A stretch of DNA of 58,408 nucleotides, the filler included, from Dugesia japonica (taxonomy: Eukaryota), in assembly GCA_001938525.1 (NCBI GenBank). It is 6 parts of 6 records of this genome, joined end to end, with 100 filler letters (N's around TTAATTAATTAA, not from the genome) between each part and the next. Parts side by side here need not be neighbours in the genome. Positions count along the whole stretch, not along the records: positions 17,577 to 29,137 come from MQRL01594293.1; 5 more parts are not named here. One strand, written 5' to 3'. Positions 8,986 to 57,883 of the stretch are shown here, piece by piece (within the stretch, counting starts at the first letter, position 1; each line of letters opens with the position of its first letter). The translations under genes and the position numbers were made by a program. The notes beneath the pieces are model-generated. The model was given only the letters and a program-made list of their open reading frames with translations. It had not been told where the DNA came from and did not search any database.

Positions 8986-10190
8986 AAATATATATTCAGA
9001 CAAAATATATTCAGACAAATATATATTCTGACAAAATATATATTCAGAAAAATATATATATTCAGACAAAATATATTCAGATAAATATATATTCAGACAA
9101 ATATATATTCAGACAAATATATATTCAGACAAAATATATTCAGACAAATATATATTCTGACAAAATATATATTCAGAAAAATATATATTCAGACAAAATA
9201 TATTCAGATAAATATATATTCAGACAAAATATATTCAGATAAATATATATTCAGACAAATATATATTCTGACAAAATATATATTCAGAAAAATATATATT
9301 CTGACAAAATATATTCAGACTAAATATATTCTGACAAATATATTCTGACAAATATATTCAAACAAAAAATATATATATTCGGACAAAATATATATTCAGA
9401 CAAAATATATTCAGACAAAATACATTCAGATAAATATATATTCAGATAAATATATATATTCTGACAAAATATATTCTGACAAAATATATTCAGACAAAAT
9501 ATATTCAGACAAATATATATTCTGACAAAATATATATTCAGACAAATATATATTCAGATAAACATATATTCAGACAAAATATATTCTGACAAATATGTAT
9601 TCAGACAAAATATATTCAGATAAATATATATTCAGATAAATATATATATATATATNNNNNNNNNNNNNNNNNNNNNNNNNNNNNNNNNNNNNNNNNNNNN
9701 NNNNNNNNNNNNNNNNNNNNNNNNNNNNNNNNNNNNNNNNNNNNNNNNNNNNNNNNNNNNNNNNNNNNNNNNNNNNNNNNNNNNNNNNNNNNNAAATATA
9801 TTCTGACAAATATATTCTGACAAATATATTCAAACAAAAAATATATATATTCGGACAAAATATATATTCAGACAAAATATATTCAGACAAAATACATTCA
9901 GATAAATATATATTCAGATAAATATATATATTCTGACAAAATATATTCTGACAAAATATATTCAGACAAAATATATTCAGACAAATATATATTCAGACAA
10001 AATATATTCAGACAAATATATATTCAGACAAATATATATTCAGACAAAATATATTCAGACAAATATATATTCTGACAAAATATATATTCAGAAAAATATA
10101 TATTCAGACAAAATATATTCAGATAAATATATATTCAGATAAATATATATTCAGATAAATATATATATTCAGACAAATAATATATTGTGA
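8986..10190 (+). repeat. Minisatellite, ~15-19 bp unit ATATAT(AT)TC(A/T)GA(C/T)AAA
   Basis: Dozens of tandem units; inverted units recur at 10751-10790. Confidence 0.95.
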
Positions 10191-10229
10191 CAAATGATAA
10201 AAATATATTTTATAAAAAACTTAACCATG

Positions 10230-14831: not shown

Positions 14832-16789
14832 GTAAGTCATTGCTGGGCTCAAATTATTTAAGATCTCAGCTTAATTCTTTCGTAAATTGATTGCCATTTT
14901 AATATTTGATTTGAAAATTGATTGTAAATTAAAACAATTGCAATACTTATATAACATAATAAAAAATTTGGATTATTTATTTGTAGGGTAATGCAAAAGT
15001 ATGTATATTGTAATCATTATAATAATAAATATTATATTTATAAAATTTGAATGAAATATTTTAAATTTAATTTATTTAAGATAATAATAGATAATAATTT
15101 AAGTATTCACTAACAAATGTTGTTTATTAAGCAATATTTGAGAACAATGAACGCTAAAAGGGTTATGAAGAATTTAGCTGAGGAACTCTCTGTCAAATTT
15201 CTTTTCAATTATTTTTTCAGTATTTTCAAAAATATCATTTCCTTCATTGATATCATTCGATATAGAATTAAAAGCTGCGCATAAATGGCCCTAAGGACTA
15301 ATATTGGAAAATGATTCCTTTATGATGAAACATTGGATTTTGTTTAGAGTAGGTAGACTGTAACGCTCTGGATCACGTCATCATCAAAAATTAAAATCTA
15401 AAGATTGTGATACTAATTTGATGAAACAAAGTAAGCCTCGAAGCCCAACAATAATTTAACTATTTGAATTTGCCATTCATTAATTTAAAATAACAAATCA
15501 GCAAAACTGTATTTATTATAATTTGTCATTAAAAACCGAACTTGAACACATAAAATAGAAATTAATTAAAATTCTAAATTATCAATTTTCATAATAAATA
15601 TGTCAATTTATATCTACAAATCAATAAATCTTGAACACAAAATGAACTCAACAATTTATTGAATAAAGTTAATCAATAATCGAAATTATTTACGGAATTA
15701 ATTGTAAATAGTCGCCTTTTTTGAGGAATTTTCAATTGATCATTTTTCAGTCCATTATCAATTGTTTTATTATTATGTGATTTATCATTATTACACATTA
15801 TTTCATTAATATTATCTACATTTTGAGAATAATTCTTTGAATAACCAGTAGATAAACTATCGTAGAAATGTGGAATATTATCTTGGACCTTCATTAATTA
15901 TTAAGTTTATTAATCTGATTGATCTATTTCAATAATCAATTGTGCGAAGCAATTATAATTTCAATTTATGGAGAAAATAAAAAAACAGACAATTTCACTA
16001 GTTATTGTGTAGTTAAGAGAGTATAGAATCCGGGGATTATTAGTGGCGAGATACCGTGATCACATCATTATTTAAATTAGTAAACATTATGATTTTTGTT
16101 TAAATCAACTGAAATTAATGATTTAGTTTTTACGGAAATTCGGGGGGGAAGCCTATTTTTTGTTTTAATTCTTCAAGAAATTAACAAAATTTTGTAATTT
16201 TTAAACATATGGTTATTTTTACATCAATCGATTCAGAAAGAAACGATCAATGGTTACGTCCAACAATTATTCTCGCAATAATTCTTGCAATAGTAAAAAA
16301 TTGATAACAATAAATTAATTTCATGGAAACAGACTTTTTTATATTTTTTTTGGTGTTTTAATGGGATTTTACCGCAACATTCAAGGTAAATACAAATGCG
16401 TGTATCAGTTTTCATAAAGTGAACCGGATCCGGGATTGATAGATTTACGATCCAGAAATTCCGAATTTGTTTTCCATAGTTGGAAATAGTAAAAAATTTA
16501 ATAATCGAGTAATTTTCAATTAACTCAACAGATAATTCCAATACAATGAATTATTTAAACAAATTTTTTAATTAAGGAATACGAATTGCTACTTATACAG
16601 AATTTTCTTAATATAAAACTTGCTTATATAGAGCACTTACTGTGTCTAAATTTGTTTTAATTAAGCCGCAGTTTAAACTAATCAATACCAAAAATCTTTA
16701 TACCAAGAAATTGGAAAACAAGAATTTCGAGTGCTCTTAAAACATTATTTAAAACATTAAAGACTATTCGGGATCAATCGAAATGATTC

Positions 16790-18659: not shown

Positions 18660-18856
18660 ACAATTTCAATAATTGCGAGAATAATTGAGGACATAACCAT
18701 TGATCGTTTAACAGAATTCCTTTAAAATAAAAGCTTCGATCAAACTTTTTTGTTTTTTTATTGATATTTGATAACAATTCGATATTTTGACTTAGTCTTC
18801 TTCAGAAATTGAAATCAATAAAAAATCAAAAAAATTTATCGAAGCTTTTATTTTAA
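18660..18856. mobile_element. Foldback/MITE-like dispersed repeat (second copy ~39680-39870)
   Basis: Inverted arms TAAAATAAAAGCTTCGAT / ATCGAAGCTTTTATTTTA. The upstream block TTGCGAGAATAATT..CATTGATCGTTT is shared with ~39690. Confidence 0.6.
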
Positions 18857-19439
18857 ATGAATAATAATAAACCTCGATTTTATTTTAATTAATATTAAAT
18901 CTTTTAACCGATTGATCATTATTAATTGTTACTATTTTTACTGAATTAACATTTGTTGGGCTGAAACAGCACAGATCGCTAAAGAATTATAGCTTCTATT
19001 ATATTATTTTTTTTACGCATTACTCGTCTATTAATAGTGGGTACCCCTTTGAGTAATTACTCACGCAATCATTTATCTGCGTTGTTTATTTATTATCTCC
19101 TCACATACACACTCAATAATTTATCTGCGTGAGTAATTTTTTTCTTCCCGCCCCCAGCGCAGCTTTTATTTAATGTCAAGCGGAATCGAGGCCCATGCAC
19201 GCGACAAAGCACAACAGGGGAGAAGTTAAATAGTGTGCACTAGGGCGAAAAAAGACACGCACAGAAATTATTGCGTGAGTAATTACTCAGAAGGACTTAC
19301 CGTGGGTGCGCATTACTACTAGTTGAGTAGTGCGCAAATAAAAAAAGCGCAGAGCGCAGTTAAATAAAACGTGGGGGATCGGAAATATATAATGCGTAAT
19401 TACACGCGTAATTCCGTTAAAATATCATAATTAATAAAT

Positions 19440-20716
19440 ATGGGTAGCACAATAGAGAATTCGTTAAATGAGACAACAGATTCAATAAAACCACTATTGA
19501 AAAGACCAATCGACGGCGGCAATGGTGGAGGATATGAAACTTTTAAACCGGTCGAACCAAGAATACCATTACAAGTAACAAGATCAAGTTTTAGAAAATA
19601 TCAAGAAGAATATAATAAATATCTGGAGGAGTTAGGAAAATGGAATAGAAATAAACAATAATGGATAAAGAAACACTGTAAATAATACACGCGTGAAAAG
19701 AAGAAACAAGAGAACGAATAAATTTATTCGAAAACATGCAAGATTATGAAATAAGGAAAGTAATAACATTTACCGGCGATGAAAGAAGATCATGGAAAAA
19801 GTTGATAGAAAATGAAAAAATCAAAATATACCATTAACTAAGAAAGGTGATATAGAATAATGGATTTACATAGAAAAGAACTAGAGAATGAGAAATTGAA
19901 ACAATTAGAAAAACATAAATTAGATAAAGAATATAAACCAAGTAAAATCATTAAAGACATGCACATGATGAAAATAAAGATGGAAACGTTGAAGAATAGA
20001 TTAAATAAAAGTTTACCACACGAATACGAATCGATAAAAAAATTCCAAAAGAATTAAAAGAATCATTAGTATATTTCGAGAAATAAGATGGAGTAATAAA
20101 TCATCATGAACAATGGTTGAATAACAATCCATTGGAAAGAACAAATTCAATAAACAAATGAAATTATTCACGGAAAAACAAAATAAACCCCCGGGATATC
20201 TGAAAAAGAATATGCATAAATTCACGGGATTTCTATTAGGAGGACTGAAAATAATGGGAAAATCGGTACAATCGCAATAATCGACTCATTAATAGATCTA
20301 GGATTCAGTGGTATAAAAGAAATACAATTATTATGGTCAATACGAAGCTCATAATGTCATTACCGGATAGGATAGCACGTTGGGGGCAAACAAAAGATTT
20401 TACAATGCATGATGTCGTTAAACATATAGAAATGAAAAGACAATTTCCGAAATCAAACATTAAAAGATGGTATTCATATTGAAAAAAAACATGAAAACAA
20501 TTACGATCAATATTATAAAGAAGATCAACCATTAAAATGGGATTACGATTGCGATAAATAAAACCTAATGTATAAATAACAGCAAGAACAAGAAAACCAA
20601 AGTATTCCGAAGAATCAGAACACAATTTCTATTGGTCATTAACAAGTGCAGAATTGGAAAAATATAAAAACATCGTATATTATTACGAACCACCACCACA
20701 ATTCCTATTCATGTAA
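19440..20716 (+). pseudogene. Decayed ORF of unknown function inside copy B
   Basis: ATG at 19440, then K/E-rich coding-like segments (19440-19661, 19860-20057, ..FYWSLTSAELEKYKNIVYYYEPPPQFLFM*) broken by stops and frameshifts. Confidence 0.4.
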
Positions 20717-20796
20717 ATATCTTTCTTTATTTTGTCAAAGCAGGTTTTCCAAAATTATTTATTATTGAGTAAAAATATTATTAATTTTTCAAAAAG

Positions 20797-21100
20797 AATT
20801 CGTGCCGGTCCAATGATCACAGATTTCATTGGCACAGTGCACGCTCAAACGAAACATTGCTCTACATAAAATTATGAAAACACATGCATAGGGTGAGCAC
20901 TGCACTTTATGAAAACACCGAGAGATCTATGACGCCGAGTGAGCACCGGTAATCATACATAAAGCCAAAAAGATACACAAAAGGTAAATGATAAAATGAA
21001 AAATAAAACATGACCAAATGTAGACTTTTCTCCAGAATCTGCTAGTGAAAAGTTGAAAAAGTGAAAAGTCAAAATTTTAAGTTTGCAGCTGGGTATAAGA
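20797..21100 (+). promoter_or_regulatory. Conserved promoter-like module of the element family
   Basis: CGTGCCGGTCC at 20801, GGGTGAGCAC at 20891, GAGTGAGCACCG at 20937, TATAAGA at 21094; same order in the two other copies. Confidence 0.5.
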
Positions 21101-22321
21101 CAGTGCAAAACTTCATAATTTCAGCTTAAAATTTTCGATATAACTCTTGCTAACTTATCAGTAAAAGTTGCAAGTAGTTATAATTATCTTTAAATTCTTC
21201 GGAGAGAATCAGAACAAAAGTAAGTTATTGAATTGTTATTTATCCTAAATACAACTATAAAGGAAGGCTGAGGTAATGATCATCACTCATTAGCTTTGCT
21301 GCCAGTGGTGGTCATCACCTTTCAGTTATCCGCTTCACGAGATCATCCACCAATTATTGATAGTGATTATGAGATGTGATAGATATTGATGATTATGAGG
21401 AATGTGATAGATGAGTTATTATGAGAGACATGATAGATGAATTATTATGAGGGAGGAAAGATGATAGCTTGAAACTGTAAATGCTATTGCTATGATAGAC
21501 GAATTATTGTGAAAGATGATTACTGTTCACACGTATGATAGATGAATACGGTTAATGGTCATTATATTATTAAAATGATGATAAAACTGGTGAAGAGATA
21601 TGATAGTTATGAGAGGTAAACATGAGTGAAACGATGTATATTGAAACAATGATTATGAATGAAATGAATTAAACATGGCAATAAGGCGAGTGTTAATGAT
21701 ACTAAAAACATTGATGAGTGGTTTCTGAATTTTGTCTTTTATTAAATGTTACTTTATTATTACGGTTGTAATTGTTGATGAAAATATTAATTCAAATTTT
21801 TATTAATCATTCTACTTTTGGTTTCCTTATATTACATATTATTGCTTATTCATTATAACTCATATGATAGTTTAATGATTAAATTGATAATAAATACTAA
21901 TAGCGTTATTACATTTAGTAGTTGGATATGACAATGCCACTAACCGGAGAACCATTCGTTATTTGGAGGGAGATGAATTTTTGAAATGTAATGTATGAAT
22001 TAATCAAAATTTATCGAGATGGTTTGGGCAAGATATGGTTACATAGAGATTTACTGAGAGATAACAGTGGTGACAAGGTACCCATGTTATATGAAGTTTA
22101 AAATAACATTGATAGATTCAATGCATGAAGTAGAAGATCCAACTCCATCCACATTGACGAATGATCAATGATCTGCTGGATTTATGGTAAATATATTACA
22201 AATTTAACTCATTAATTAAATTGATCTTCATTTATGAGACGTAAATGTCACCGAGTATTATAAATAATTGTATTATGATTTTATATAAACCTAACCATGG
22301 AAAATACTATTTCGTAATTAG

Positions 22322-22851
22322 ATGTCTCGATATATAACGAAATCAGTAGCAAAAGAATCATTGAAAGCCGGAGGGTATTCATTCCAATTAACTTCTTGTA
22401 ACAATATGCCAGTCTTATGAGACTCACTCGAGCCTATCGGCATCGATGTGGAGCCCTGGGGATCACCCAGGACTAACTGCGAATAAAGAATGAGGAAATT
22501 AAAAGGCTGAAGACAGACATGATTCGATAAAAGCAACAACACACGGAAAAACTCCAACTGATTGGCCATTTACAAATCCGTGTCTATCAACAAGAACAGG
22601 AATATGAGAAACAGCTCGTAAAGGTAACATCATGGCAGCAGGAGCGAAAAAAGGAATTGGTCACTTTGCTGATTCGGACCACGGATCTGGCTAAACAACG
22701 ACACCTAATTCAGGCAATGTTGACGACACAAACGGAAGCAGAAGAGTATAGCAAACTCACAAAGAGGTTGGCAACAAAAGTGGAGACAATTCTACAACAA
22801 GTTCTTAAGCCGTTGGACGAGATTGATATTCTTAAAGAGACAGCTGTGTGA
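22322..22851 (+). pseudogene. Coiled-coil coding exon of element copy B (disrupted)
   Basis: Acceptor ATTAG at 22321. MPVL*DSLEPIGIDVEPW..LLIRTTDLAKQR..EAEEYSKLTKRLATKVETILQQVLKPLDE is homologous to 57223-57705. Confidence 0.6.
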
Positions 22852-23161
22852 TCAAATTTTTCTTTGAACCGCACTATATAGAAAGTTTTGTTCTTATGCT
22901 CTTTATTTTTATTCGTGAATAGAAATAATAATATAAATGTTCATTGTAACGATAAGTAATCACAATTATTATGACAGGGAAGATAAAAAATATGATGAAA
23001 GATAAACTCGATAATAATGCAACATAAATTTATTATCTTATACCTGTCGTTTACGAATTTAAAGATTTCCTATTATTAAATTATCATAAAGCAAATTATA
23101 AATTGCATTATCATTGAAAATATAATCATAAAACAAATATAATATTTTTCATTAATTTCAG

Positions 23162-23466
23162 TGTCAAATGCAAGATTACAGCGATGGCCGATCTGCAGAA
23201 GAAATGGTGTTTGATGCACAAGAAATTACAANNNAAGATCACAGAATTACAACATAAAAATGGACAGCTCCGAGATTTAAAAAATCGATTAAAGGAACGA
23301 GATCTGGCACTCTCGCAGACATGTCGCATGATGGCGGACATAATTAAAGCTTACGCGAATAGAGAAGTGACAACAGTCCGAACGCTGGCTCAAGTACCCA
23401 GGATCTAAAAGGAGACCATAAAGAAGAACAAGGAAGTCATCGACCAGGACGACTTTAATGACATAA
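23162..23466 (+). pseudogene. Second coiled-coil exon of element copy B
   Basis: Acceptor TTTCAG|TGTCAAA conserved with 57883. DLQKKW..KLQ.KITELQ..RLKERDLALSQT..TVRTLAQ is homologous to 57884-58200. Confidence 0.6.
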
Positions 23467-25269
23467 AGCTTTCTTATAAAGAATTGATTTAATTTATGAT
23501 TATCATATATTAATAAAAATGACACCAGAGAAATAAGAGCCAAAAGAAATCGAAATTGTAAACACAAGACGGGATTCAACATAGCCGCACAAATTTCTGT
23601 GGTTATTAGGTATCATCCCAGACATCGAATTAAATCGGAATTACGAAGTTTCGACCAGGAGAGAAGTAATCAGATTAACATCAAAAGCCTAGTAACCCAA
23701 CACATTTAACAAAAGATTCTAATTAAAACAAATTTCATCTACACACAACTAAACAAACAAACGCTCTTACTGCTAAAATCTTTATTAATAATAAAATAAA
23801 ATTTAATTATTCAACAACCAGATTATATAAAAAAATCCTCAATAATGTCGTGTACAACAAAAGGAAATCAGGAGAAACGACACACTATACTTATCTTTCG
23901 TAGCTTGAACTCAACCCAACTTTTATTACATTAAGCTCTCACTTCCTTTGTCTCACTATTATTTTATTGAATTGCTACCTTATACTTATAAATTATTTTA
24001 AGTTTTGTAGAAATAACTTTTCACCACTTTAAATCATTGTTATATTATAGGAGCAGTCTAATCATTTTAAACCAGTTTCGTTTAATCGAAATACGGTCAT
24101 CATTTGTTGAACTAATATCATTTTGTAAAAATACTCCTTTAAAGTTTTAAATCAGTATAATTTAGTTTAAGTTAACAAATAGCATCTTTCACAGTATATA
24201 ATAATCTTTCATAATCTAAATTTTATTAATTCAATTTTCCGTAGTTAAAAAGAATCATTTTTCATAATTTAACATTCAATAAATTCAATCTTAATTTAAA
24301 AATAATCTTTCGTAATTTAAAATTCATTACATGTTAGCCGAATTTGATGTTAATGATTTAGACCTTGATTTCAGTCATTAGAAATTAATTGTCCCGTAAG
24401 TTACAAATTAATACACCCAATATTGAATTAGTCTTGCTGTATTAATAGACGATCTATCGAGTGGAATTTTGCAGATCATGCACAAGCTGCATTACGCGTT
24501 TGTAATTTAAATGGAGATTATTATAAGATATTCAAACAAATTATTATATTATTACCAAAAAAATGAAAGCTGCCTTATGTAACCTTAATTTTTATTATTT
24601 CTACAATTTTTCAACCTTTCTAAACTACCTTTAATATATTTTTTGTCCCATGCACTCGTAAATTAAAAATGAATTAGTTATTTAATCTTTAACCATAGAT
24701 CTGTATTTTATCAAAAAAGTTTTCCAATGCAAAGATCAAAATTGTTTTTTTCTATTTTATTAGATTGTTCAATATTTTGACATAATTTTTAACAGGTACA
24801 ATCCTCGAAATATTAAATATAAAAAACACAATTTTTTTGGGATTTCCAACTAAAATGCTAGTTTATATAGTCTGACTCCTTGAATTCAGGTAAACGTCTG
24901 AAGTTTATAATTAATTCAAAATCGTTCATCAATAATATAAAATAAAATTGTGTAAAATTCTGAAATCACAAATCATTTTTTAGCCAAATTTTCTATACAA
25001 CAATAAAAGTTTTAATAAAATTGTTACATAAAAAATCAAGTTACACAAAATATATTCAAATAATTTTGTTTAATTAAATTAATATATTTTTCCTTTAACG
25101 GACCATTTTAAATTTATTATCATTATTATTACTACTATTATTTTATGTTAAAAATTGTTACATTTAAGATGAAAATGGCACACTAACCGGACAATCACTA
25201 TGCTGTATGTATTATTATTTCTTTAATTTTTAGATAATTGATTTTTTAAATTTTTATTAATTATAATTT

Positions 25270-25324
25270 CACGTCGGTAACTACTGCCGTTACCCTGATG
25301 ATGGCCATGGCAGGCCGAAACGTG
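25270..25324 (+). ncRNA. Type III hammerhead ribozyme
   Basis: CACGU-C | GGUAAC-UACUGCC-GUUACC | CUGAUGA-U | GGCC-AUGGCA-GGCC | GAA-ACGUG. Full core, three perfect stems, GUC cleavage triplet ending at 25275. Confidence 0.85.
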
Positions 25325-27704
25325 CAGCAACAATTGGATTTGTTTTGTTATTTTGGGTGAGTTGACTTTAATTTTCATTTAACATTTCAATTTGTAACTA
25401 ATATATTTGTGATTAATATAATAATATTGATATTTAAGATTATAATAACTTACAACTCAAACTATATAATTATTCTCACACAAATCATTTAACTATTAAT
25501 CGATTTAATTTACGTTAAATAACCTCACAAATTGCAACTATTGTTAATCGAAATTACCGAATTAAAATCTCAAAAAAAGAAATTGTAGAAAAATTGAGAA
25601 TGAAAATTTAATTTGTTACTTTGGTGTTTGATGAAAATTGTGATTAGAGATATAAATTTTGATGTAATTATTGTAATATAATAATTTATAATTAATATAT
25701 TTATTTATATTTAAATTTTACAATTTAATAATTAAGTGGTAAAATTTGAAGTATACACTATTGCCGCAGATGTAATCTTTCGAAAAACATTAATCTGAAA
25801 CGTGTTTTGTGACTTGTTTATGATCTTTACGCAATATTAAATTCTTGAAATACAACTGTTAGTTGCATATTCAAAATTTTGATCTTAATTTGTTTAGCAT
25901 GAAAATTGATGAAGTATTATAGATATTATTTTCGCGATTTAAATTTGAAGATTAAGCTTTTTAATAATCAATTTAGAAATATAAATTTAAGTTAAACAAT
26001 AATCGTAACATAATCATTATATTTACTTTAAATCGTTTTTAATGCTTATTATACAAACGTTTATAACATTACATTGCTTTCTATTCAGTTATAAAATGAA
26101 CCTATTTTTCTTAAATTCAGAATTATGGAATGTAATATTTCTTAAAATAATAACTAATTTAGTTAGGTGTCAACTGGAAATATCGGGTAAACCTAGATTG
26201 AAATGTTTCTTTAAAAAGACGTTTTCTACTAATGAAAATTAAAACTGCATTCTTTAAATTCCAAAACTAATTTATATTAATTACTTACTTTAATAAGTAG
26301 TTTATTGTTCATTTTAGTATTTATTGTATCTCGATTTATTATTTCGAGATACATCAAAAGTAATCAAGTGAATATTAATAGAGATATATTAGTGATTCAC
26401 AAATTTAGTTTTTCCACGTAAGGAGTAAAATTTACGTGTNNNNNNNNNNNNNNNNNNNNNNNNNNNNNNNNNNNNNNNNNNNNNNNNNNNNNNNNNNNNN
26501 NNNNNNNNNNNNNNNNNNNNNNNNNNNNNNNAATTTTTTTTCCAATTATTATCTGAATTCAAACAACCTTTTATTAATTACAAAATTAAACTAAACTAAA
26601 AAAAATACTGATTAACACATTCGCTACAGACCACATGGTTTGCTCCAACTAACCAATGACTAAAATATAGAGGCATATTTAATCTATTATTTATCGGTGA
26701 AGTCTATTGCAACTGAATACATATTAAGTAGTAAAGCTATGGCTCATACTTGAGACATCAAAATCCTATTTTGGCTAAATCAAACCGGATTTCATATTGG
26801 AATCAGTTTTGTGATCAAGTACAAAAATATTTTGGGTCTATAGAAAANAATGTCATTTTACACTTCGATGGCGAACGTTTTGAGCACCTTTATAAATCTT
26901 CGTCACAAAATGATCAATAAAAATTAATAACAAATAAATGCTCATGAAAGATACTTTCCTTAACTTTTAAAACCAACAATAAAAGAAACAAAATAATAAT
27001 GTTGGGACAGACCACAACCTATATTGAAATTCATGATCTTAATGCTAATTAAATAAACAGAACCCGAAGAAAAATGACAATAATTAACAACAAATGGATA
27101 TTATTCCCGAATAGACAATAAATAAATAAAGGTTGAAACAAATTTCTACGTAAGCCATGGTGTTATTCCACCAAAAATAAGGAAAAACAATTACATCGAA
27201 CAATACCCAAAATTAACTAGAACTTTCCAAATAGAAGAATTCTTTTCATAGAAATTCCATAGTTTTATATTCTATAGCAAACTTTAGAAAAGGAGGAATT
27301 TCACTGAGAGCGAAACTTTTATTTATTTTAAGACTGCGGGAAAATAAAAAATAAATCGAGAAAATGATCGATTAAAACAATAAAATAGGCGAATAAACCA
27401 ATGAACAAGCCCCTTACTCGGGAAAAACAAGTATAAATGTGACCNACAAATCCAACAAAAATACCTATAATCATAATCGTCTTTGTTACCAAGTCAATGT
27501 TTTTGAAAAATAACTAGGCGAATAATAATCACCAAAATTCGAAATTCTAAGTGACAAACTCTAATTGCAGTAATTACCAAGTCCACTGAAGCAATTATCA
27601 ACCAGATTCAAATAATCAGCCTTGTCTCTAGAAAATTGCACTCAAATCCGATCAATTAATCGAATTCAGGAGCAGTAGATCGAGTTACTATTTATTGCAG
27701 TCAT

Positions 27705-30183: not shown

Positions 30184-31455
30184 TTAGGTTGTCACATATG
30201 AAATGTCCGATTTTAGAACTCGTTTTTTAAACTAATATAATTTTATGTATTATTTAACATTTAGAACTTATTTATATATCATTTTGAAGGTGAAATGTTT
30301 GATTATCATTATATAATATTTGTTTCAAAAACCTATTTATTTAAATTATTTTTAGACAGCATGGAACACAAGCTAAACAATACGGAAATGCGAACATTAT
30401 TTTTATATGAATGGAAATTAAAGCACAACCCAACAGAAGCTGCCCAAAAAATTAATTTTGCATTTGGAGAGGGTTCAGCTTATGAAAGCACTCTTCGGAG
30501 ATGGTTCGACAAATTTCAAAAGTGTGATTTAACCCGGGTCAATTTGGAGAGGGGGCGCCCCAGGGTTGTCATTAGCAACGACGATATAAAACGTGAAGTG
30601 GAACTAAACACTAGTCAATCACTATGACAACTTAGTCAAACGTTAGACGTTAGTCATCAAACAATTTCCCGTTATTTGAAAAAAAAGATGGACTAATGGG
30701 TTCCTCATTTATTGAATTATTCCCAAAAATTGCAAAGATTGAAAATTAGCCAAATGCTGCTGGATCGAAATAAATCGGAATCTTTTTTAGATCGCATTGT
30801 CACTTGTGATGAAAATTGGGTTATTCGTCACAATTGTAGACGTTCTGCACAATAGTTAGATGCCGATAAACCTCCATTACACTGTCCTAATCCGGATTTA
30901 AACCCGAAAAAGACAATGATGACAGTTTGGTGGTCTATAGCTGGAGTCATACATTTTTCTTTGTTAGAAGAAGGTCAAACTATTAACTCAGACAAATACT
31001 GTTCTGAAATTGAATTAATGCACAAAANATTATGCATTAAACAGCCATTATTGTTCAATAGGAAAGGAATCATCTTCTTGCATGATAATGCTCAATCACA
31101 TGTGGCAAAGAAGACGTCGCAAAAATTGACAGACTTAAAAATTGAAACTTTACCACATCCACCATATTTGCCCGACTTATCTCCGACAGATTATTATTTT
31201 TTTAAACATTCTGATAATTTTTTGGTTACAAAAATCATTGCTGATCGGGAGGATGTCAAAATGGTCATATCCGAATTCATAGACTCCAGAGAAAAATATT
31301 TATTTGCTAATGGTATTTTGAAACTAGTTTCTAGATGGCAAAAAGGTGTAGAATCTGATGGTGATTATTTTACTTAAATATAATTTGATTTTATTGGACT
31401 TTTATTGATTTTATTGTCTATTACGTAATCGGAAATTTCATATGTGACAACCTAA
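30184..31455 (+). mobile_element. Full-length 1272-bp mariner (Hsmar1/cecropia-like) inserted into the Polinton remnant
   Basis: 29-bp TIRs TTAGGTTGTCACATATGAAAT(G/T)TCCGATT at 30184-30212 and 31427-31455; TA duplication on both sides. Confidence 0.95.
30361..31377 (+). pseudogene. Mariner DD34D transposase with in-frame stops
   Basis: WVPHLL, IVTCDENW, TVWWS, HDNAQSH, YLPDLSPTDYYFF, LVSRWQK; three premature stops. Confidence 0.95.
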
Positions 31456-31545: not shown

Positions 31546-32538
31546 ATGGGCAAGCTGAAGAAGATATGAACAGACGCAGAAAATCCCGCAGGTTTTCGTG
31601 GCGTTGAAAAATTGATGAAAGCAGCACAAAAATCAAAATCAATGACCAAAAAGTGGTTATCTAGTCAACTGGCATACAGTTTGAACAAACCAATGTTGAA
31701 AAGATTTCCAACAAGAGCATATAAAATGTTCGGTATTGATGCTTTATGGCAAATAGATATGATGGAGATGATCCCATATTCAAAAATAAATAAAGGATAC
31801 AAATATATTTTGACATGTATTGATGTATTCAGTCGATTTGCAAGAACAATTCCAGTCAAATCAAAATCCGCAAATGATATAGAACCGGCAATTAAATCAA
31901 TGTTTAAAGATGGACATCCAGATAACTTACAAACACAGTTGGGTAAGGAGTTTTACAACTCTAAAGTAAAAAATCTCTTATCACATCTAAAAATAAACCA
32001 TTACACTGTATTCTCTCAGTATAAAGCAGCACATGTAGAGCGATTTAATCGTACATTAAGAGCCGCCTTGAAAAACTACTTTGTGCAAGCCATAAATGTT
32101 TAAATGGAGCAAGACCTCTTGATGTAAGTTCAAACAAAGAATTAACATTATGGTTATCACGTGATCAAAGTAAAGCAAATAAGAAGCCAAAATATAAAGT
32201 CAGTGATCATGTTAGAATCTCAAAAATAAGTGCATCTTCATTCATTAAAAACTTTGATAGTAATTGGAGCGATGAAGTGTTNNNNNNNNNNNNNNNNNNN
32301 NNNNNNNNNNNNNNNNNNNNNNNNNNNNNNNNNNNNNNNNNNNNNNNNNNNNNNNNNNNNNNNNNNNNNNNNNNNNNNNNNNNNNNNNNNNNNNNNNNNN
32401 NNNNNNNNNNNNNNNNNNNNNNNNNNNNNNNNNNNNNNNNNNNNNNNNNNNNNNNNNNNNNNNNNNNNNNNNNATGGATATCAAAAACCTACTTGGATAT
32501 TAGCATCACAGTTAGTTAATAATGAACAACGTGAATAA
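31546..32538 (+). pseudogene. Polinton/Maverick retroviral-like integrase with chromodomain-like end
   Basis: NPAGFRGVEKL, WQIDMMEM, YKYILTCIDVFSRFA, LQTQLGKEF, VERFNRTL, KYKVSDHVRISK, NWSDEV, GYQKPTWI. Confidence 0.92.
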
Positions 32539-32870
32539 TTTTCTATATACTTTTACCTAGTAATAGCTGTCCTTTTATTAATCCGAATAATAATGCTAGC
32601 ATTTTCATGGTTGAGCTTCAAAATCCGATTTATACGGATGGTAGTTGGGAGGTAGCATTGTTAGATTTTACCTTTGTATATCAAACATTTTCATTATATA
32701 GTAAATCTAAAATTCATTACATGAAATAGAAAACCATAACGAAATAAATAACTATAACAATTAATCACAAAGAAAAGTTGTTGAGAGTCAATCAAAATGA
32801 TCATATTGCTATACGTGATAGGACCGTTATACTTATATATTGTGAATGTCCGTATAAAATCATAATTTCA
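32522..32870 (+). pseudogene. Polinton minor capsid protein (PX/penton) N-terminal fragment
   Basis: ILLPSNSCPFINPNNNASIFMVELQNPIYTDGSWEVALLDFTF matches LPSNS..NN..F.V.L..PI.L.G.WEVAL. Confidence 0.75.
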
Positions 32871-32904
32871 ACAGTTCAGTGCTAAATCAATAGCAAATAA
32901 TAAT

Positions 32905-34313
32905 TTGGATCCATTAAATTTTTTTGGAATCCCGGGTATCAGTTGGGCATCGGCATTGATGTCATCAAAAGAGCCTATTGAACTGTTGATGGACAATGAT
33001 ATGTATGCCTTTTTCGAAGGTGGTATACGCGGCGGTCTAACATTTGTAAATAAGCACTATGTTGCCTCCGATGAAAAACAGAATTATTTTATATGGATAT
33101 CAACAATCTATATGGATGGGCGCTAAGTCAAAACTTGCTCTATGCTGATTTGGAGTGGGTTTATACTGGATTAGAAGATATTATGGATGAATGTAAATCA
33201 GCAGACTTGGAGTCACTACCATATGGATTCATATTGGAGGTGGACATGGTTATTCCAGCCGAGATATAAAATAAATTGAACGATTTACCTGTTGCAGCAG
33301 AACATCAATGTCCTCCAGGGTCAAAAGTAAAGAAATTATTACTGACTCATTACCCGAAAATTAATTATGTTATACGCTGGAGGCTGCTGCAAATATACAT
33401 ACAATTGGGAGTACAGGTAACTAAGGTTCATAGAGCAGTCAAATTCAAGCAAATTGCGATTTTTGAAGATAATATTAAAAATAATACAGTACTGAGATCA
33501 CAATGTACAACAGAATTGGAGAAAAATTATTATAAGCTATTAAATAATAGTCTGTACGGTAAGTCTGTAGAGAATTTGAAGAAAAGAATAAATTTGCGCT
33601 TGTGCAATTCAAANNNNNNGCTGATGACATATACGTCAAAAGCTAGTTTTAGGAAAACTATAAAAATAGATCAGGACCTAATAGCTGTTCTTCTCAACAA
33701 GGCTATTGTATGTTTGGATCGACCGAGCTACATCGGATAGACTGTACTGGACCTATCAAAACTCCGTATGTATCAATTACAATACAATCAGTTGGAAAAG
33801 TATAGGATAGAAGAAAATTGTACAATAACTATTGTAGCCGGCGATACGAATAGTTTTTTCCTTGAGGTTGTAAAAATTAGTTTGGAAAAACTAACCAGAT
33901 TAATTGTGAGAGATCAGTTATTGGATACATCTAATTATAGCACAAGCCATTCTCTTTACTCAAATGATTTAAACAGTGCCATCGGAAAATTCAAGGATGA
34001 GAGTAAAGAGAAGAAATATAAATAGTGAATATTTTAAAGGCCTAAATGTTATACCCTACTTAGCGATAAGGAATCCTGTAAAGCTAAGGGCATAACATTA
34101 AAAAATAGCGGCATTACACATCAGTCATATATTAACTGTTACAATAATAATGAGGCTGTCATTGTAGATCAGTTTCAAATATCCACTCGTAATCATCAGC
34201 TCTACAGTATGAAAAGTAAAAAGATAACTCTATCCAATAGGGAGGATAAAAGAATGTGGATAGAGAATAATAAAGGTATACCGTACGGACACCATAAATA
34301 TATAAATAAATAA
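32905..34313 (+). pseudogene. Polinton protein-primed family B DNA polymerase, C-terminal part
   Basis: PGISWASAL, GIRGG, YMDINNLYGWAL, KLLNNSLYGKSVEN, AGDTNSFF, GKFKDE, KAKGI, DKRMW..PYGH. Confidence 0.93.
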
Positions 34314-35739: not shown

Positions 35740-37580
35740 GAAATCCGTAATTTTATTCTTTTATTATTATCCTTGACTTTTGATTTGATTTCTTGCAAAA
35801 CACTTGATTTTCTCTTCAAATTCATCCCGTTTCTTTAGTTCTCCGAGTCTGTCGCATCTTCTTCTTGATTATTACTGATATTACCTAAAATTCATTTCAT
35901 CTCGTTGATCTATTGATGTTTATTCGTTATTCTACAAGAACAAATATTCGAGTATCAGTTTGTTGTTTCTCTGACTACCCNNNNTTCTGCCCTCGTCTCA
36001 TTCGAAATTAATTCCTTCACCCGATGTTTATTCGATATTCTTGATAGAGAGAGAAACAAAATCTGCTTGATATTACTCTGGTATTTTGAATCTCAACTCT
36101 ACCTTTTATTCAACTTATTTTTAATCACTGATGTTCATTGCCGATTCATCTCAGTAGTCGATCCGAATTAGCCGTTGCCGACTCCTTCGACTCAACCACT
36201 TCGATCTATTTCAACTGTTATTTAACAATTCCTTCATTTCGCTGATTGTACGATAGTTGTTCCTAGTGTCAACAAACAATCACCTTTCTGGTGTTACATA
36301 GTGACTTGCTCGTATACACTGATTCATTCCATCGTTTAATTCATTTATTTGTATCATTATTATATTCATATTGCTGTTTACTGTGTCTTAATCTTGCTAC
36401 TCATCGTGCCTGAGCCTTGCATTTCTAACTCCGACAAGATTGATAACACGATCTTACACTTCTGTTTCATAATTTTGATGTTCATAGTGTTTTTATCTTG
36501 TTAACCGATCCGGAACAGTCTTTATCTTTCTAACTTTCCCGGACAGGCCAACACGATGTTTCACTTTGCGTTGATATAGTTCAGTTTAAATTCCACTTCC
36601 ATTACTTACATGATGCCTCTGACAACTCCAATTTATCATCACTTACCCGATAATGTTTTTTTTGATCGTACTATTACTACAAGTGTGATAACTCTGAATT
36701 CGTCTATTAATCATTTCATCATCTCACAGTTGTTTCATCATTATTCATTTTTGTGTTCTGCATGTTCAATCTCTGCATGTTTTGTAATACCTTTATGCTC
36801 ATTTTAAGTCAAGATGTTAAATTTCCTAGTGTAAAATCATCAATCTCTTTGTTATTCTTGCTGTTAACTCAACAATCTCATTATTAATGTTAGCTCAGCT
36901 CAATAAAAATCTAAATAATGAAAATAAATAAAATGACTGGCGTTGCCAGTCAACGATGTGCATCTTCTCAGTCTTCCGCTCATTTTAAAAACATTAAAAT
37001 TTACTTTGCTATCCTGGTAATCGATCGATTTGATGCTTTGATGATTTACACTTCTTGACTTTTTTATATCTAGATTTTTTCGGTCTAGTTTTAGTTAGTT
37101 TTTTGTGTTTTTGTTGTTTGTTTTTTTTGTTAGAATGGTCTCTCCTTTTAAACCATTCTGTATTGTCAATTTTGACATTTGATGTAGGTGTTATCTTGGA
37201 AAAAGTTTAATAGTCACTCAATCGTGCGGTGCTCACTCGCAGATTCTTCTGTTATACCTTAATATAGACATGATTATTATTTCACTTACTGTCTCGCATT
37301 GAATAAGTATAATTTTTTATTTTTCATATGACTGCCGGTGCTCAGGCGGCTTCATAGATTTTACATTGTTGATGTGTATTTGATCTATTTTCAATTCATT
37401 CGTAGATAGATGCACGGTGCCCACCCGATACATATAAATCTAATTTACCTACGATGTGCCGTGCTTACCCGTCACATATTTTATACTAATATTTGCTGGT
37501 TATAACGTGCAACGGTTTCAATACAATCTGTGATTATTGGACCGGCACGATTCAACTTTGAAAAATAATAATATTTATTG
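35740..37580 (-). mobile_element. Partial inverted copy (C) of the TG...CA element family
   Basis: Reverse complement carries CGTGCCGGTCC (37539-37549), four GTGAGCACCG-like motifs, TGTCAAAATTGACA, MSGRLRRCTSLTGNASH (from 36983) and an RLIR..TTEMNRQ coiled-coil remnant. Confidence 0.7.
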
Positions 37581-38188
37581 AAATAATAATAATTTCTGTT
37601 TTCTTGGTTTTTAAATATAAATATAAATTTTAACATGAATTAATATAAATAATTTAATAAATTTTTTTTTCCTATTTAACGTTTAACGATCTTTCATTAT
37701 CTGTAACTCTTATTTCAAAATACCAATTCTTTCTAGATAATTAATAATATTTATGTAATTAATAATAATTTTAGATAATTTCTACATTCTACAAATAAAT
37801 TTCCAACTATTCTTGCTAAATCTCACATTAACTTTGAATTACTTTTAATAATATCGGCCTTTATTTTCTTAGTTCCTGTTAATTATTTTAAATTAGTAAT
37901 ATTCAACTAAAAATAATAATAATAATTTTACATTGTATTTAGTTAAATACCTTTATAATAATAATACTATTTTCCAACTCATCGTATAATAATTTTAATA
38001 CATTTTAAATACAAATACCTCGTTGATCTATTTTACATTTCTTTTCTATGATAGTTTCACTTAATTTGCCAAAAATCTTTTATTAAATTATTTTGTTTTA
38101 ATCTTAATTTTACATTAATTACTTATTATATTCCGAATATCCTTNNNNNNNNNNNNNNNNNNNNNNNNNNNNNNNNNNNNNNNNNNNN

Positions 38189-38200: not shown

Positions 38201-39236
38201 NNNNNNNNNNNNNNNNNNNNNNNNNNNNNNNNNNNNNNNNNNNNCTTCCATTGAAATGAAAAATTTCCAACCAAAATATTTTTTTGAATTACTCACCAAA
38301 AATATTTTTTATCAATTTTCCGCCAAAAAAAGTTTTTTAAATTTCCTTCCAAAAACAAATTTCAAAAATATCAAGACTCCCCTCTTCCCCGTTCGAAAAT
38401 ATTAAAAAACAATACTTCCTTGTTCAAAATACCGAAAATATAAACAAAAATACATCAAATACATTAAAATACCATTACTTTCATTAAATTCATCAATTTA
38501 AGCAAAATACTGCATTTTTAACCAGAATAAAGATTTCAAGAAATTATGACGTCATAACCACCAGACAGAAAAATTTCAAATAAATCTTAAAAAAACCGAT
38601 AATTAATTCTCTTTCCACACATACCAACTTCCACCTCACTTAATATTTTTTAAACACACTTTTACTACTTACAAAATAAACCATTCAAATTTAAGCCCTT
38701 AAAAAAAAATCAAACCACATTTGACAGCAACATCTTTCCCATCACATTACCTCTCCAACAAACCATCAACCAACAAATTCCATCAACCACATACAAACCT
38801 ACAACCTCACTAAAAACTACCCACAATAATTCATACGACTGTGCCTGTGTGCCAATACTCTTGTAGCAAAAAACCATTCATCCAAACTCATAAATCCTTA
38901 AGATAATATATAGACTAAATTTTTGTTCAACCACAACCAAATCTTTAAAACTACAAAAATGTGATTTCCAAGATCTCCAGATCCTCCTCCTCGTTTTTTC
39001 CACTCCTACACAGATATAACCACACACACAAACTGAACTTGACCTACTTTTTTAAACCACTTTAGCAACCCAAACACACACAAAATTAAAAATACACACA
39101 CTCAAACTTTCAGGATAAAAGAACTTGGATGTAAATTAGAATTAATATTTCTTCGTAGTGCTGCCATGTATTTTTTTATCAATTAAACAACTTTTTATTA
39201 TTATTTATCTTATTTTTTAAAAATAATATAAATTTA

Positions 39237-39488: not shown

Positions 39489-39679
39489 GTTGATAATAAA
39501 CCTTAAAGAAAAGAGGTTTATTTTTGGAAATGCTCAGTGCCATTATGTGTGTTAAAGTTCTTTGAAAGATTCCATAATCAAGATTAAAACACGAAATTTT
39601 TGTGTGTATTAATGTATTTGTAAACTGTTCAATCTATTTTGAAAAAAGTGTAAAATATTGTTTAATTTTACCTTTTACA

Positions 39680-39870
39680 ATTGCAATTATTGCGAGAATA
39701 ATTATTGGACGTAACATTGATCGTTTTTTGAATACATAAAAATATTAGCTTCGATCAAATTTTTATTTTTTTGTTTTTGATAATAATTCAAACTTTCGAC
39801 ATGACTTTTTTTCTAGACGAATTCAAATTTTTATCAAAAACAAAAAGTAAAAATTTGATCGAAACTTATA
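39680..39870. mobile_element. Second copy of the foldback/MITE-like repeat at 18660-18856
   Basis: AGCTTCGATCAAATTTT ... AAAATTTGATCGAAACT arms and the shared upstream block. Confidence 0.55.
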
Positions 39871-41739
39871 CTTTAATTTTGCCTTCATTGTAGAAAAATT
39901 TGAATTTTTTTGTAGTTGGAATTTGATGGATAACTTTGTGTACAGTTAAGGGCTTATAAAATGCTGATATTTTAGTTATAAAAATGAAAGGGTTAAATCT
40001 ATTATTTTCAAATAATACTATAAGATGATTGAAATAAAAAAAAAATAATAGTTTTATTAAAAATATTACAATTCATGATACGACAAGGTAAATAAACAAA
40101 TAGTTGCTAAACAAATAACCAAATTTGATTTGTCATAATCACTCCAACTGAATATCGTAAATAAATAAATGCAATGAAAAAATATTAATTAAATTAATTC
40201 ATCTCATATATAAAATATAATATAAACGATAAAATATATCAAAACTATAATTTTTAACATAATTTAATTGAATTTGTTTGTGGGCATAAAATAAAGTTGC
40301 GTATGATAAAGAAATGATTAATAATTTTTGAAAATCACTCGATTTATAAATAAATAAATTTATTAAAAATAAAAAATTGTTTTTTCTTTGTTCAAATTTC
40401 TAAAATGTCTAATATATGAGATACAGTTATCCGTCGTATAACTCATATTTGTATAACGCATTTTCGTATCCCTCGTATAATGTGGGGATTTCCCACAAAT
40501 AAATTTCTGCACCATAACTTAACAGTGTATGCAATGCATACATATTTTTACAATAAGTATTATTGAAATACACGTACGTCTTTGTTCATAGCAAACTGTT
40601 TCTTTAACATTAAACCTACCGTAATTTTATACATACCTATTTCTATCACAACTGACCATTAGACCCACGTATAAAAAATTATATATTTTAAGAGTAGAAA
40701 AAACCTTTAGTTCAATTTAGTATATGAATAAAATACTTTTCAAAATAATAATTTTAACTATTTTATTTATTAAATAAAAACAAATATCTCAAATATGGAA
40801 ATTAAGTTAAGTCTGGGAGTACTATAGCGTATGTTCCTATAACGCGGTACGTATATACCGCCTTTTATTGGGAATCAATTATTTCAATTGTATAAATTAC
40901 ATTTGACATCTGATAGTTTTATTAAAATAATAGAATATACCGGGTAATGCGAGAATAAAAATGAAATGTGGTAACAAAATATTAGGTTGTTTGAAAGTAA
41001 AATTGGTTTTTCTTAGTAAAATTCAAGACTACATTTTTTATTAATAAAAACATTTTCAATTGGCAATATATTGTTCCTTTTTATCCAACACTTTATTTTA
41101 GTCCTGTCGCGGAGAAAATTTATCAAATAACAAAATATGGATAAATTTGAAGTTAAAAGTATGGCTTTATTATACATTTGTTTTGCAATCGTTAAGAAAC
41201 AGTAACTATAGACAAATGTTTAAACTATGTCAAACAACAAGCTTTTTGAAATAGTTTTTAGATTTGTTGTGATTACCATATAAAAAAAATACATTTGATT
41301 CATAGCTAATATTATAAAGTTTGATTAATAGATAATCATTTTAGTAATTTTTTAAATTTGTGTCTAAATTAATAAATAGTTATTTATAATAAGAGTTTGT
41401 TGACAATATTTGAGTGCTTAGCTTTGTGTTCAATTTTTATTACTTGTAAATATTTCTGAAATTAAAATTTAGAAAATATCATTTTTACTATGTTTACTTG
41501 TTTAAATTTAGTAGTATTAGGTGAATAGGTGCATACTGGTTCACTTGTTAAATTTATTCTATTATATACTTAATGAACACTGTCACAAATATCATTTTTT
41601 TAATAAACTATTTGTGATATAAAATATACTTTTGAAATTCAAATTTTTCTGATTCTTTTATTGTCATTATGCAAAATAATTTGAAAAACACTGGCCTAAG
41701 AAATGATATCTGAGAAAATATTCATGTTTCAATCTAGTT

Positions 41740-43720
41740 TCATAATTATTTTGAAAAGCTGTCTTCAAGGGCTTATGTAGATTGAAACAATTTTTCAGTT
41801 ATCCAAAATCACAAAGTTAAAAGAAACTATAATTCAAATGTAAACGGAAATCTATTTATTATCACATACTGCAAATACTTTGAGAAATCATTGCACCAAG
41901 GTGATCGACAACCATCAGAGATTCTAAGGGAAATGTCGAGGCATTTCAAACAGATCGATTCACAAACAGATATCAGTAACAATGCAATGCTTCGTTGCGC
42001 ATTCATTCAATCTATTCCTAAATTAATAGCACGGTATTAAATATTAAAAGATAAATCAATAAAAGATCGTGACTTACGTCTGACAAATTAATGAACGTCA
42101 AAGCTGATTTCCATTGTTCAATAAATCTATCAATCCTCAAACAACCACGCAGAAATCACTTCAATGATCTAAAGATTGAAATTTCATGATTCGACAAAAA
42201 TCAAATGAAGCAGCCAAGACAGTAAGCTCAGATGATTTATGTTATTTTCACATACGATTCAGAATAAAGGCAAAGAAATATCAATACCCATGCAAATTTC
42301 CTTCACAAAACGATCAGAGATCTCAATGATGCCGATAACTGCGATCCCAAATCTCAAATCGGTAACGTCAATATTCACAGTGCCTTGTAAAACTTCTAGT
42401 AAAAACTTCACCTTTCTCATTGACACAGGAGCAGACATCAGCGTTTTTCCATCTAAAATATGTAATGACGCAAATTTTACTGCCGCAAATAACGTTCCGT
42501 TCTGCTCTTCTGGAACAAGAAAATTGACTATTCGTATCAAAGGTTTTTATGAAACATTCTCATGGACATTCACAGTTGCTGACGTTCGTCAACAAATATT
42601 AGTCTCTGATTTCGTAGGGCACATATAGATCACTGTTCATTGCTACAAGAACCAAATTCACAGAAGAAGACAAATAGCACAATAAACTATCAAGATTATG
42701 GAACTCAGTAATCTAACAGAAATTGACGACGAAACGATATCTACACCATCAACTCAACTACACATTGTCACTTCTGACTTAAATGTAGTTCCACTTGCTA
42801 GGCGGATTTCAAAAAGTATTTTCAAAGCAGTTAGAGAAGAGTTTAATAAACTTTTGTGCCAAGAAGTGATAAAACCAAGTACGATTAAATGGCCTTTACC
42901 AATAGTTGTCAAAAACAAAGATACCTCTTATCGTCCACTTGGGAATTATCGATTTTCCAATGCAGCAACAAAGCCCGATAGATATCCAATACCTTGGATA
43001 TCAGATACTTTAGATCAAATTTCATCTAGTATAATACTTTCATCAATAGATCTTGAAAAAGCATACCATCAAACAGCAATTGCAACGAAAGACACGCACA
43101 AAACGACAGTAATCACACCTAAAATGTACCTAATGAGTACATGAAAAGGCCATGTCGGTAAAACAGCACATCTCTAACTTTTCAAAGATACATGGATCAA
43201 TTGATGGGTCAGCACCGAGAATACGCAACACTATACATTGATGATATCCGAATTTTTTCAAAATCTAATAAGGTAATTGAGAAGCATTTACAAGTGGTTT
43301 TAGAAACGCTCATGATAGCCAAACTAATATAATAAGTTTGCATACACCACATAATGTGTAAACTATGATACGATTTATTGGGACATTAACATTCTATCAA
43401 TGGATGATCTAAAATTTATCGGATATTACATGATTTAGTTGCTAGAGCCAGCAAAAATAAAAAAATGTTCAAGTGGACAGAAACTCAAGAAATGGCATTT
43501 CAATCCAACTTGTATCAGATAACAATGATAACTTCAGATCCTAATAAAAAAGTTATTTTATGTACCAATGCATCCAACACTGGATTGGGAGCCAGTCTCA
43601 ATCTTGACAGTAACGGTAAGTTACAGCCAATCTCATTCTTTTCTAAAAAAAATTAAACAAGACAAAACAGATGTATGCCACATCGGATCGTGAACTTTTA
43701 TCAATATATCTAGCATTTTA
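41740..43720 (+). mobile_element. Decayed Ty3/Gypsy gag-pol (gag, Zn knuckle, protease, RT, RNase H)
   Basis: GDRQPSEILREM, CYFHIRF..A..YQYPCKF, FLIDTGADIS, NAATKPDRYPIP, IDLEKAYHQ, YIDDI, CTNASNTGLGASL, PISFFSKK, DRELLSIY. Confidence 0.92.
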
Positions 43721-54700: not shown

Positions 54701-55730
54701 GTATGTATTATTATCTATAATTAAATATCTGTTATAAAAGTAGAATTATAAAGAAAGAATTATTAAAATATAATAAATAATTATTTTACAGTAGAAGTAA
54801 AACAAGAAAATAAATAAGACAGAAGTCATCGTTGTAATTATAGTTAAATCCATAATAAAATTATTATATTATCGATAAGAAAATTATACTATTATAATAA
54901 AGTATTTAAATAGGTAAAATTTAATATTATTATGATTTAGTAANNNNNNNNNNNNNNNNNNNNNNNNNNNNNNNNNNNNNNNNNNNNNNNNNNTTATAAA
55001 AGTAGAATTATAAAGAAAGAATTATTAAAATATAATAAATAATTATTTTACAGTAGAAGTAAAACAAAAATAATTTATATTAAATGATTTCGGTAAATTA
55101 ACTAGGATGACAAGAAAATAAATAAGACAGAAGTCATTGTTGTAATTATAGTTAAATCCATAATAAAATTATTATATTATCAATAAGAAAATTATACTAT
55201 TATAATAAAGTATTTAAATAGGTAAAATTTAATATTATTATGATTTAGTAAATATTATTAATTATTAAAAAGAAAGTGATATTAAAAGACCAAATGGATA
55301 TGTAGTAATAAATAAAAAACGTTAAGTAAGAATTTGAAAGAATATTAAATTAATTCCAAGTATTTGAGTGTATATTCATACTTGTAATACAGAAGCAAAT
55401 TATTTAAAATATTATTTTTTTGTAATAAATATTATTAAAATTATTATTATCATATACATTATTATTGAAATAGAAAGTAGAATTTTAAAATAAAATTTAT
55501 ATCCAAAAGGAAATAAAAAGTTAAATAAGAATTATATATTATATTAAATTATTTATATTCCTTTCTGCCATTATTTATATTTATAGTCGAAAAACAAGGT
55601 TTTCGAAATTATTATTTTTAATAATAAATATTATTATTTTTGTAAAGCGGTTCGTGCCGATTCAGTGAACACAGATGTTGTTAAAATCGTGCATGTTACC
55701 ACCAGAAATATTATTAGAGATTAGCAGTGA

Positions 55731-57705: not shown

Positions 57706-57883
57706 TCTCAGTTTGACTTTAATCTAATATAGTTTTATGTTTATGCTTTGTATTATGTTAATTGATGTAATTGATCCTACTAATTAAATTGAATTGCATA
57801 GTTAGTAAAATAAAATAAAATGAATATATATTAGCAATATCTTATACTAACTGTACAGAAATGACATTCATTAATATTTTCAG

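Follow-up and report, generated by a model that had tools for sequence, protein, structure and literature searches.

The locus described here raises the question of how a mobile element could carry a conserved gene that appears to contain introns, since retained sense-strand introns would be unexpected in an element copied through spliced RNA. An earlier note on this 58,408-nt stretch of Dugesia japonica DNA (assembly GCA_001938525.1; the whole stretch is called the window) had described four conserved blocks, A to D, common to two element copies, and had read them as parts of one apparently spliced coiled-coil gene evolving under protein-level selection. The analyses presented below concern the kind of element that carries these blocks, which of the blocks encode protein, and whether they belong to a single gene.

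The window has a GC content of ~25% and many assembly gaps, and its mariner, Maverick-like, and gypsy-type remnants point to a repeat-rich animal genome. All three lie on the plus strand: the mariner transposase remnant at 30361-31377 (PF01359, E 6e-20), the Maverick/Polinton-like remnant at 31570-33740 (integrase, PF00665, and type B polymerase, PF03175, the latter below cut-off), and the gypsy-type protease and reverse transcriptase (RT) remnant at 42236-43144 (PF00077 and PF00078, both below cut-off). In addition, a hydrophobic open frame of 224 codons at 1510-2184 on the minus strand gave no Pfam hit and no homologue, and short AT-rich units repeated in tandem, among which assembly gaps occur, occupy 8986-10200. 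A hammerhead-ribozyme-like motif of type III topology (GUC site, CUGAUGA and GAAA cores, and three stems) was recognized by eye at 25270-25325 on the plus strand, outside the element; it likely comes from a Penelope-like element or a retrozyme, and its minimum-energy fold is a structure different from the hammerhead. An Rfam search reported no hammerhead in 20650-25500 or in the whole window and missed this motif, which indicates limited sensitivity.

Three copies of the element are discussed. Copy B (18954-23702, plus strand, 4,749 bp) is a whole element and likely a solo LTR. Copy D (54350-58408, plus strand) belongs to a distant subfamily with 57-65% nucleotide identity in the blocks, and its 3' end is out of view. 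Copy C (36930-38143, minus strand) retains an AT-rich upstream part common with copy D, the leader region, and half of block A, and a gap cuts its 5' side; blocks B to D were undetected in it by a profile search, and a block C remnant near 36170-36090, proposed from visual look-alikes (LIR.. and KVE), was rejected since this search did not recover it. Short look-alikes of the 3' motifs of copy B at 39063-39076 and 38561, across the gap from copy C, are marginal and could mark the end of another copy. A further candidate copy at 5299 was rejected, its start matching at 12 of 14 positions only and its score falling within the shuffles.

Copies B and D are colinear from ~20700/55560 to 23575/58333, over ~2.9 kb. 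Against composition-shuffled controls, the four blocks reach z values of 9.3 (A), 8.1 (B), 15.5 (C), and 12.9 (D), and the spacers reach 3.6 (A-B), 0.6 (B-C), and 1.8 (C-D); the GC content is 34-52% in the blocks versus 21-26% in the spacers. The colinear arrangement described earlier is thus real, and another conserved region, which the earlier note did not contain, lies 5' of block A at 20700-21000 (z 9.6, three copies). The smaller observations also proved largely accurate: block A occurs in three copies, the LIRTT codons are where they had been placed, and TTTCAG|TGTCAAA precedes block D at 23162 (B) and 57884 (D). The TTTAG plus (T/C)AG motif before block B is present at 21918 in copy B, and its position in copy D is 56910, the earlier value of 56891 being ~20 nt early. 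Both copies, B and D, are now dead.

Copy B starts with TGTTGGG and ends with CCCAACA (23696-23702, plus strand), the first and last 7 letters being exact reverse complements of each other, and CATT stands at both flanks (18950-18953, plus strand, and 23703-23706), four letters being the only match length that suits the two ends; this target-site duplication represents a single insertion. Of 1,051,323 end pairs of the same spacing in the window, 308 have a 7-bp inverted match, and only copy B itself also has the duplication. The 5' end (18954-18969, plus strand) matches the first 16 nt of copy D, which starts at 54350, without a difference but no further (E 0.001); the flanks of the two starts are unrelated, and the depth of this end in the DNA run X1 is not high (18.4). 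At the other end, the shorter side of the contig joint 23619>23672 is 31 nt long and ends at 23702. An AATAAA at 23512-23517 (plus strand; 58215 in copy D) lies 3' of block D and 190 nt from the end of copy B, a signal that is common in AT-rich DNA and is weak evidence alone. The published consensus for LTR ends is TGTTRNR...YNYAACA, accompanied by an AATAAA close to the 3' end (PMC3601003), and copy B fits both end patterns; the sequence characters of Ty3/gypsy (Metaviridae) LTRs found in it comprise the ends, the short target duplication, and AATAAA near the 3' end. A longer terminal inverted repeat is absent from copy B (end-to-end local score 27 versus a shuffled median of 28 and maximum of 43). 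Neither a polypurine tract before copy B nor a TGG primer site after it was found, as expected for a solo LTR. No gag-pol is linked to the copies in the window, the protease-RT remnant being 11 kb and 18.5 kb from them; no copy with two such repeats flanking gag-pol was seen, and both metagenome pattern scans were empty. Judged from ends and motifs only, copy B is probably a 4.75-kb solo LTR of a large gypsy-like retrotransposon.

The strongest coding signals come from blocks C and D. Block C (22322-22851, plus strand; homologue 57223-57705) has a frameshift near 22480, internal stops, and a terminal stop at 22849-22851, and block D (23162-23492, plus strand, 3' of TTTCAG; homologue 57884-58200) has one internal stop at 23406. 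The protein identity between copies B and D is 45% for block C and 51% for block D. Codon counts were taken from this one natural pair, the sense frame guiding the codon alignment. The main part of block C (113 codons) has a pS of 0.83, a pN of 0.32, and a ratio of 0.39 (bootstrap 0.30-0.51), with 49, 30, and 70 differences at codon positions 1, 2, and 3, and block D (87 codons) has a pS of 0.79, a pN of 0.26, and a ratio of 0.32 (bootstrap 0.22-0.47), with 24, 18, and 55 differences; the 52-codon 5' part of block C has a pS of 0.82, a pN of 0.46, and a ratio of 0.57. Because pS is saturated, dS is not correctable, and these pN/pS values are to be taken as estimates on the upper side. In the two remaining sense frames of blocks C and D, the ratios are 0.89-1.73 and 11-15 stops occur. 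Read antisense in register, block C has a ratio of 0.55 with 4 stops and block D one of 0.37 with 3 stops (versus 0.32 with 1 stop in sense), so that the strand of the two blocks is read from the stop counts, the acceptor-like sites, AATAAA, and the strand of the hairpins. On this codon-level comparison, blocks C and D are coding regions under purifying selection, and the proposal that the cargo was selected at the protein level is borne out for these two blocks. The synonymous excess noted earlier was not confirmed for the other two blocks. Block B (21919-22186, plus strand) is conserved and lies 3' of an acceptor-like TTTAG, its frame is broken, and its coding signal is not significant (core of 11 codons, p 0.14), nor does any frame give a significant one.

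Blocks C and D match no known family. A block C profile had no hits among 1.84 billion representatives, block D had none among 167 candidate longer proteins or 119 near-length ones, and no homologue was found in viral contigs, in collections that contain few animal transposon proteins. The best Atlas comparison of block D (0.86) is below the usable range. Pfam searches with 13 translated pieces of copies B and D gave nothing above cut-off and only subthreshold coiled-coil-type hits, and PDB sequence matches (block C to IF3, E 0.008; block D best E 0.26) were taken as chance. Blocks C and D are orphan coding blocks, with no homology between the two (probability 0.1%). The model of block D, built from a two-sequence alignment, is a single helix over residues 9-89 (mean pLDDT 81.7, pTM 0.41); heptad periodicity is modest, being reached by 8-10 of 300 shuffles for block C and by 32 and 96 of 300 for block D. 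The likely products of blocks C and D were two helical accessory proteins, distinct from each other and encoded within the probable LTR.

Block A is a different kind of feature. The GRLR frame has no significant coding signal (p 0.06-0.43 over three pairings), no other frame has one, and the ATG of MSGRL is in frame in copy C only. The block forms instead a 70-nt RNA hairpin (21262-21331, plus strand; homologue 56199-56268 in copy D), of which copy C retains the 5' arm and the apical stem (36977-36933, minus strand). It is the strongest fold among 73 windows in copy B and 61 in copy D (z -4.6 and -4.0). The hairpins fold well on the plus strand only (z -3.95 and -3.63 versus -1.16 and 0.33). 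Copies B and D have 23 common pairs, none of them broken, with both partners changed in 3 pairs and a single partner in 4; the apical stem of copy C adds one double change, which 12 of 500 shuffles reach in a weak control with three rows. Differences between B and D fall on 16 of 24 unpaired versus 9 of 46 paired positions (p 1.7e-4), an excess that is partly circular because the pairs derive from the same two sequences; under a null that is not circular, 25 randomly placed changes keep the folding energy in 2 of 1,000 and 0 of 1,000 trials. RNA structure explains block A better than the coding exon proposed earlier does.

Other features lie upstream of block A and at the 3' end. A hairpin at 20801-20843 (plus strand) is conserved in copies B, C, and D, with double changes in 3 of 16 pairs and 4 pairs broken in one copy. 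It is followed by GAGCAC-type repeats and a donor-like site (20890-20990, plus strand; GT at 20984), the repeats numbering two in copy B and more in copies C and D; the segment has a high summed DNA depth and is likely a promoter or leader, and the donor-like site 5' of block A is also present in copy C and, weakly, in copy D. ORF-X (19440-20716, plus strand), found in copy B only, has ~420 codons, starts with MGS, and contains several stops and frameshifts; it is without a homologue (its start was compared with the Atlas), and diverged relatives occur among the contigs of the guessed-RNA runs X8, X11, and X14. A 250-bp unit with 47-nt inverted arms (19045-19294) in the 5' part of copy B is either a nested element or part of the U3 of this subfamily; the arms start with CCCTTT, are 81% complementary, and look MITE-like, but a relative in X14 continues to 19377. 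ORF-X and the inverted-repeat unit may together be a nested insertion, in which case the true LTR would be ~3 kb. A further hairpin at 23571-23619 (plus strand), near the 3' end, is the most abundant motif in the DNA contigs.

Abundance was compared in the DNA run X1, in which 937 contigs were placed and in which summed contig depth does not equal copy number. Contigs of the locus itself have depths of 3.7-18, and contigs related to blocks C and D sum to 45-230. The summed depth is 3,121 in the leader bin, 12,586 at block A (at 21302), 12,154 in the 3' hairpin bin, and 2,486 in the terminal bin, block A being ~50-250x deeper than blocks C and D. Contigs of other copies join pieces of block C or D to the same 3' motif (joints 23326>23588 and 22863>23588). 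An abundant family appears to share the cis motifs and the right end, with the match stopping at 23702, and, read cautiously, the coding blocks are more diverged or absent in most of its members.

The reading of blocks A to D as one four-exon spliced gene, which is independent of the element class, draws on the colinear GC-richer blocks with AT-rich spacers, the acceptor-like sites conserved 5' of blocks B and D, the donor-like site at 22187 in copy B, and the AATAAA after block D, and decay could have erased the donors. Against it, the stop of block C occupies the homologous position in both copies (22849 and 57703), a simple scan found no donor common to both copies after block A, B, or C, and block A, with its compensatory changes and no common start codon frame, is a hairpin whose DNA depth far exceeds that of blocks C and D. 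As for splicing in general, the acceptor-like site that precedes block D has a different phase in the two copies, 28 nt (B) and 38 nt (D) from the conserved frame, with an N in copy D there. The RNA data are thin and would not suffice to reject splicing. Three raw RNA runs, read to 6-25%, placed 7, 205, and 12 reads, mostly on a neighbouring repeat, with no joints; the best read cover in the window belongs to a palindromic MITE-like repeat family (18660-18862, 39677-39877, 16238-16298, and 44698-44753), and the low cover over blocks C and D is not read as silence. Among the joints listed for six RNA or guessed-RNA runs with thin cover (for the contigs, 15 listed and 33 unlisted), no GT..AG joint was found at the predicted places. 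Unspliced guessed-RNA contigs span the acceptors at 21919 (X8) and 23162 (X8 and X14) and may be DNA or pre-mRNA. One 380-nt X8 contig has a joint, 20963>23285, that fits either a leader-to-D splice or a deletion copy and is a hint only, and a joint labelled GT..AG in X14 (22847>23295) was not counted, since it is off any predicted acceptor and its middle is unread. A single spliced A-B-C-D gene is quite unlikely. The anatomy agrees better with independent terminal ORFs that share a leader further upstream, and a gene of two or three exons (leader to D, or B to C) may exist.

The class of the element can be read in other ways. A non-autonomous Ginger-like DNA transposon, moving as DNA with an intron-containing cargo, would accommodate the conserved acceptor-like sites before blocks B and D, and Ginger elements share TGTNR ends, 4-bp duplications, genes with introns, and a length range of 2.6-7 kb (PMC2836005). 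Their TIRs, however, measure ~40-300 bp (PMC2836005), whereas the inverted ends of copy B do not extend beyond 7 bp, and neither an integrase-like transposase, as in Ginger1 and Ginger2/Tdd, nor any other transposase trace was found (no Pfam hit above cut-off in 13 pieces), although non-autonomous copies can lack one. The strand-specific RNA hairpins and the terminal AATAAA fit an RNA-copied element better, and a Ginger-like origin is unlikely. If the element were instead of the non-LTR or Penelope-like (Terminon-type) kind, read from the minus strand and tailed by (AAT)n, the blocks would be antisense cargo in which introns survive; (ATT)n runs do precede copy D and the weak candidate at 5299, and Terminons and Athena elements carry accessory coiled-coil ORFs inside a retroelement (PMC6431247). 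Copy B, however, lacks a clean tail, telomeric repeats, and RT; its ends are complementary, and its duplication is short and fixed. The Rfam search gave no family, hammerhead or other, inside the element, and the hairpins fold well on the plus strand only. This reading is very unlikely. Less probable still is that the blocks belong to a multigene family of the host, made up of small coiled-coil genes joined with repeat-derived promoter and terminator pieces: the orphan status of blocks C and D would suit a lineage-specific family, as would their modest depth relative to the surrounding motifs, but both copies are broken at several places, the ends and the duplication enclose the genes exactly, and other copies join block C or D to the same 3' motif.

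If copy B is a solo LTR of a gypsy-like element, the parent would have been an integrase-inserted element with LTRs of 3-5 kb and accessory ORFs 5' of the LTR poly(A) signal. Copy B would have been left by recombination between the two LTRs of this parent, the stops and frameshifts accumulating afterwards. Transcription of the cassette would run on the plus strand, starting in the LTR leader (20700-21000) or in the 5' leader of the element itself, alternative acceptors would open block B, C, or D, and the transcript would end at the LTR poly(A) signal. Such subgenomic RNAs would express the accessory ORFs, and unspliced full-length RNA would be packaged and reverse transcribed, by which the AT-rich spacers would be inherited; the hairpins would be cis signals on the full-length RNA, of the R-region or packaging type. 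LTR retrotransposons package unspliced RNA and splice subgenomic RNAs, and BARE has been shown to package or copy its unspliced genomic RNA, with copia, Ogre, and Bagy2 mentioned in the same connection (PMC3735527). Because LTR elements replicate unspliced RNA, the intron paradox disappears; should the element be of this type, retained sense-strand introns would be no surprise. As to function, the likeliest role for the proteins of blocks C and D, a guess and rather doubtful, would be that of coiled-coil adaptors that bind Gag or host partners in particle formation, movement, or the avoidance of restriction.

Accessory ORFs in or overlapping the LTR (U3) are known from MMTV (sag), lentiviruses (nef), and foamy viruses (bel2/bet). 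Expression of these retroviral LTR ORFs relies on spliced subgenomic RNA or on an internal promoter and ends at the LTR poly(A) signal, and unspliced RNA is copied, a mode of working like that proposed here. They belong to vertebrate retroviruses and number one per LTR, whereas here at least two ORF blocks with AT-rich spacers lie in an invertebrate-type genome, with no sequence homology to them. Among insect gypsy elements, Woot, Ulysses, and Osvaldo have long LTRs, TG...CA ends, and 4-bp duplications, as does the element described here; we know of no selected ORF described in their LTRs. LTRs with lengths of 1.9-6.5 kb have been described, and so have giant gypsy elements that carry accessory ORFs and number thousands of copies (PMC6431247). 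The planarian Burro/GYPSM1, marked by a giant Gag-Env-Pol polyprotein, and the plant Ogre resemble the present element by description, with multi-kilobase LTRs, very many copies, accessory ORFs of unknown function, and an AT-rich host; however, section 7 of the review assigns the additional ORFs to the internal part and mentions none within the LTR (PMC6431247). Passages of PMC11410931 and PMC8532177 contain nothing on LTR anatomy, and those of PMC13238120 likewise offer nothing. No report of ORFs within invertebrate gypsy LTRs was found in the literature searched, which excluded most subscription papers, Repbase Reports, and the original description of Burro.

The intron paradox itself is no novelty, and the point of interest is the presence of selected accessory genes wholly inside what is probably an invertebrate-type LTR. 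Repeat annotation treats LTRs as non-coding. It is possible, and put forward tentatively, that an invertebrate gypsy-like lineage keeps at least two orphan accessory genes wholly in a multi-kilobase LTR, with retrovirus-style alternative acceptors and control by the conserved hairpins, that its solo LTRs are scattered self-contained cassettes, and that its subfamilies swap U3 cargo (ORF-X in one and none in others). If this is true, every solo LTR would be a self-contained gene cassette, because the promoter, the genes, and the poly(A) signal would all lie inside the LTR. The accessory-gene design of complex retroviruses would then have arisen also in a Metaviridae-like lineage, two orphan protein families would be added, and solo LTRs would constitute a route for spreading complete expression units.
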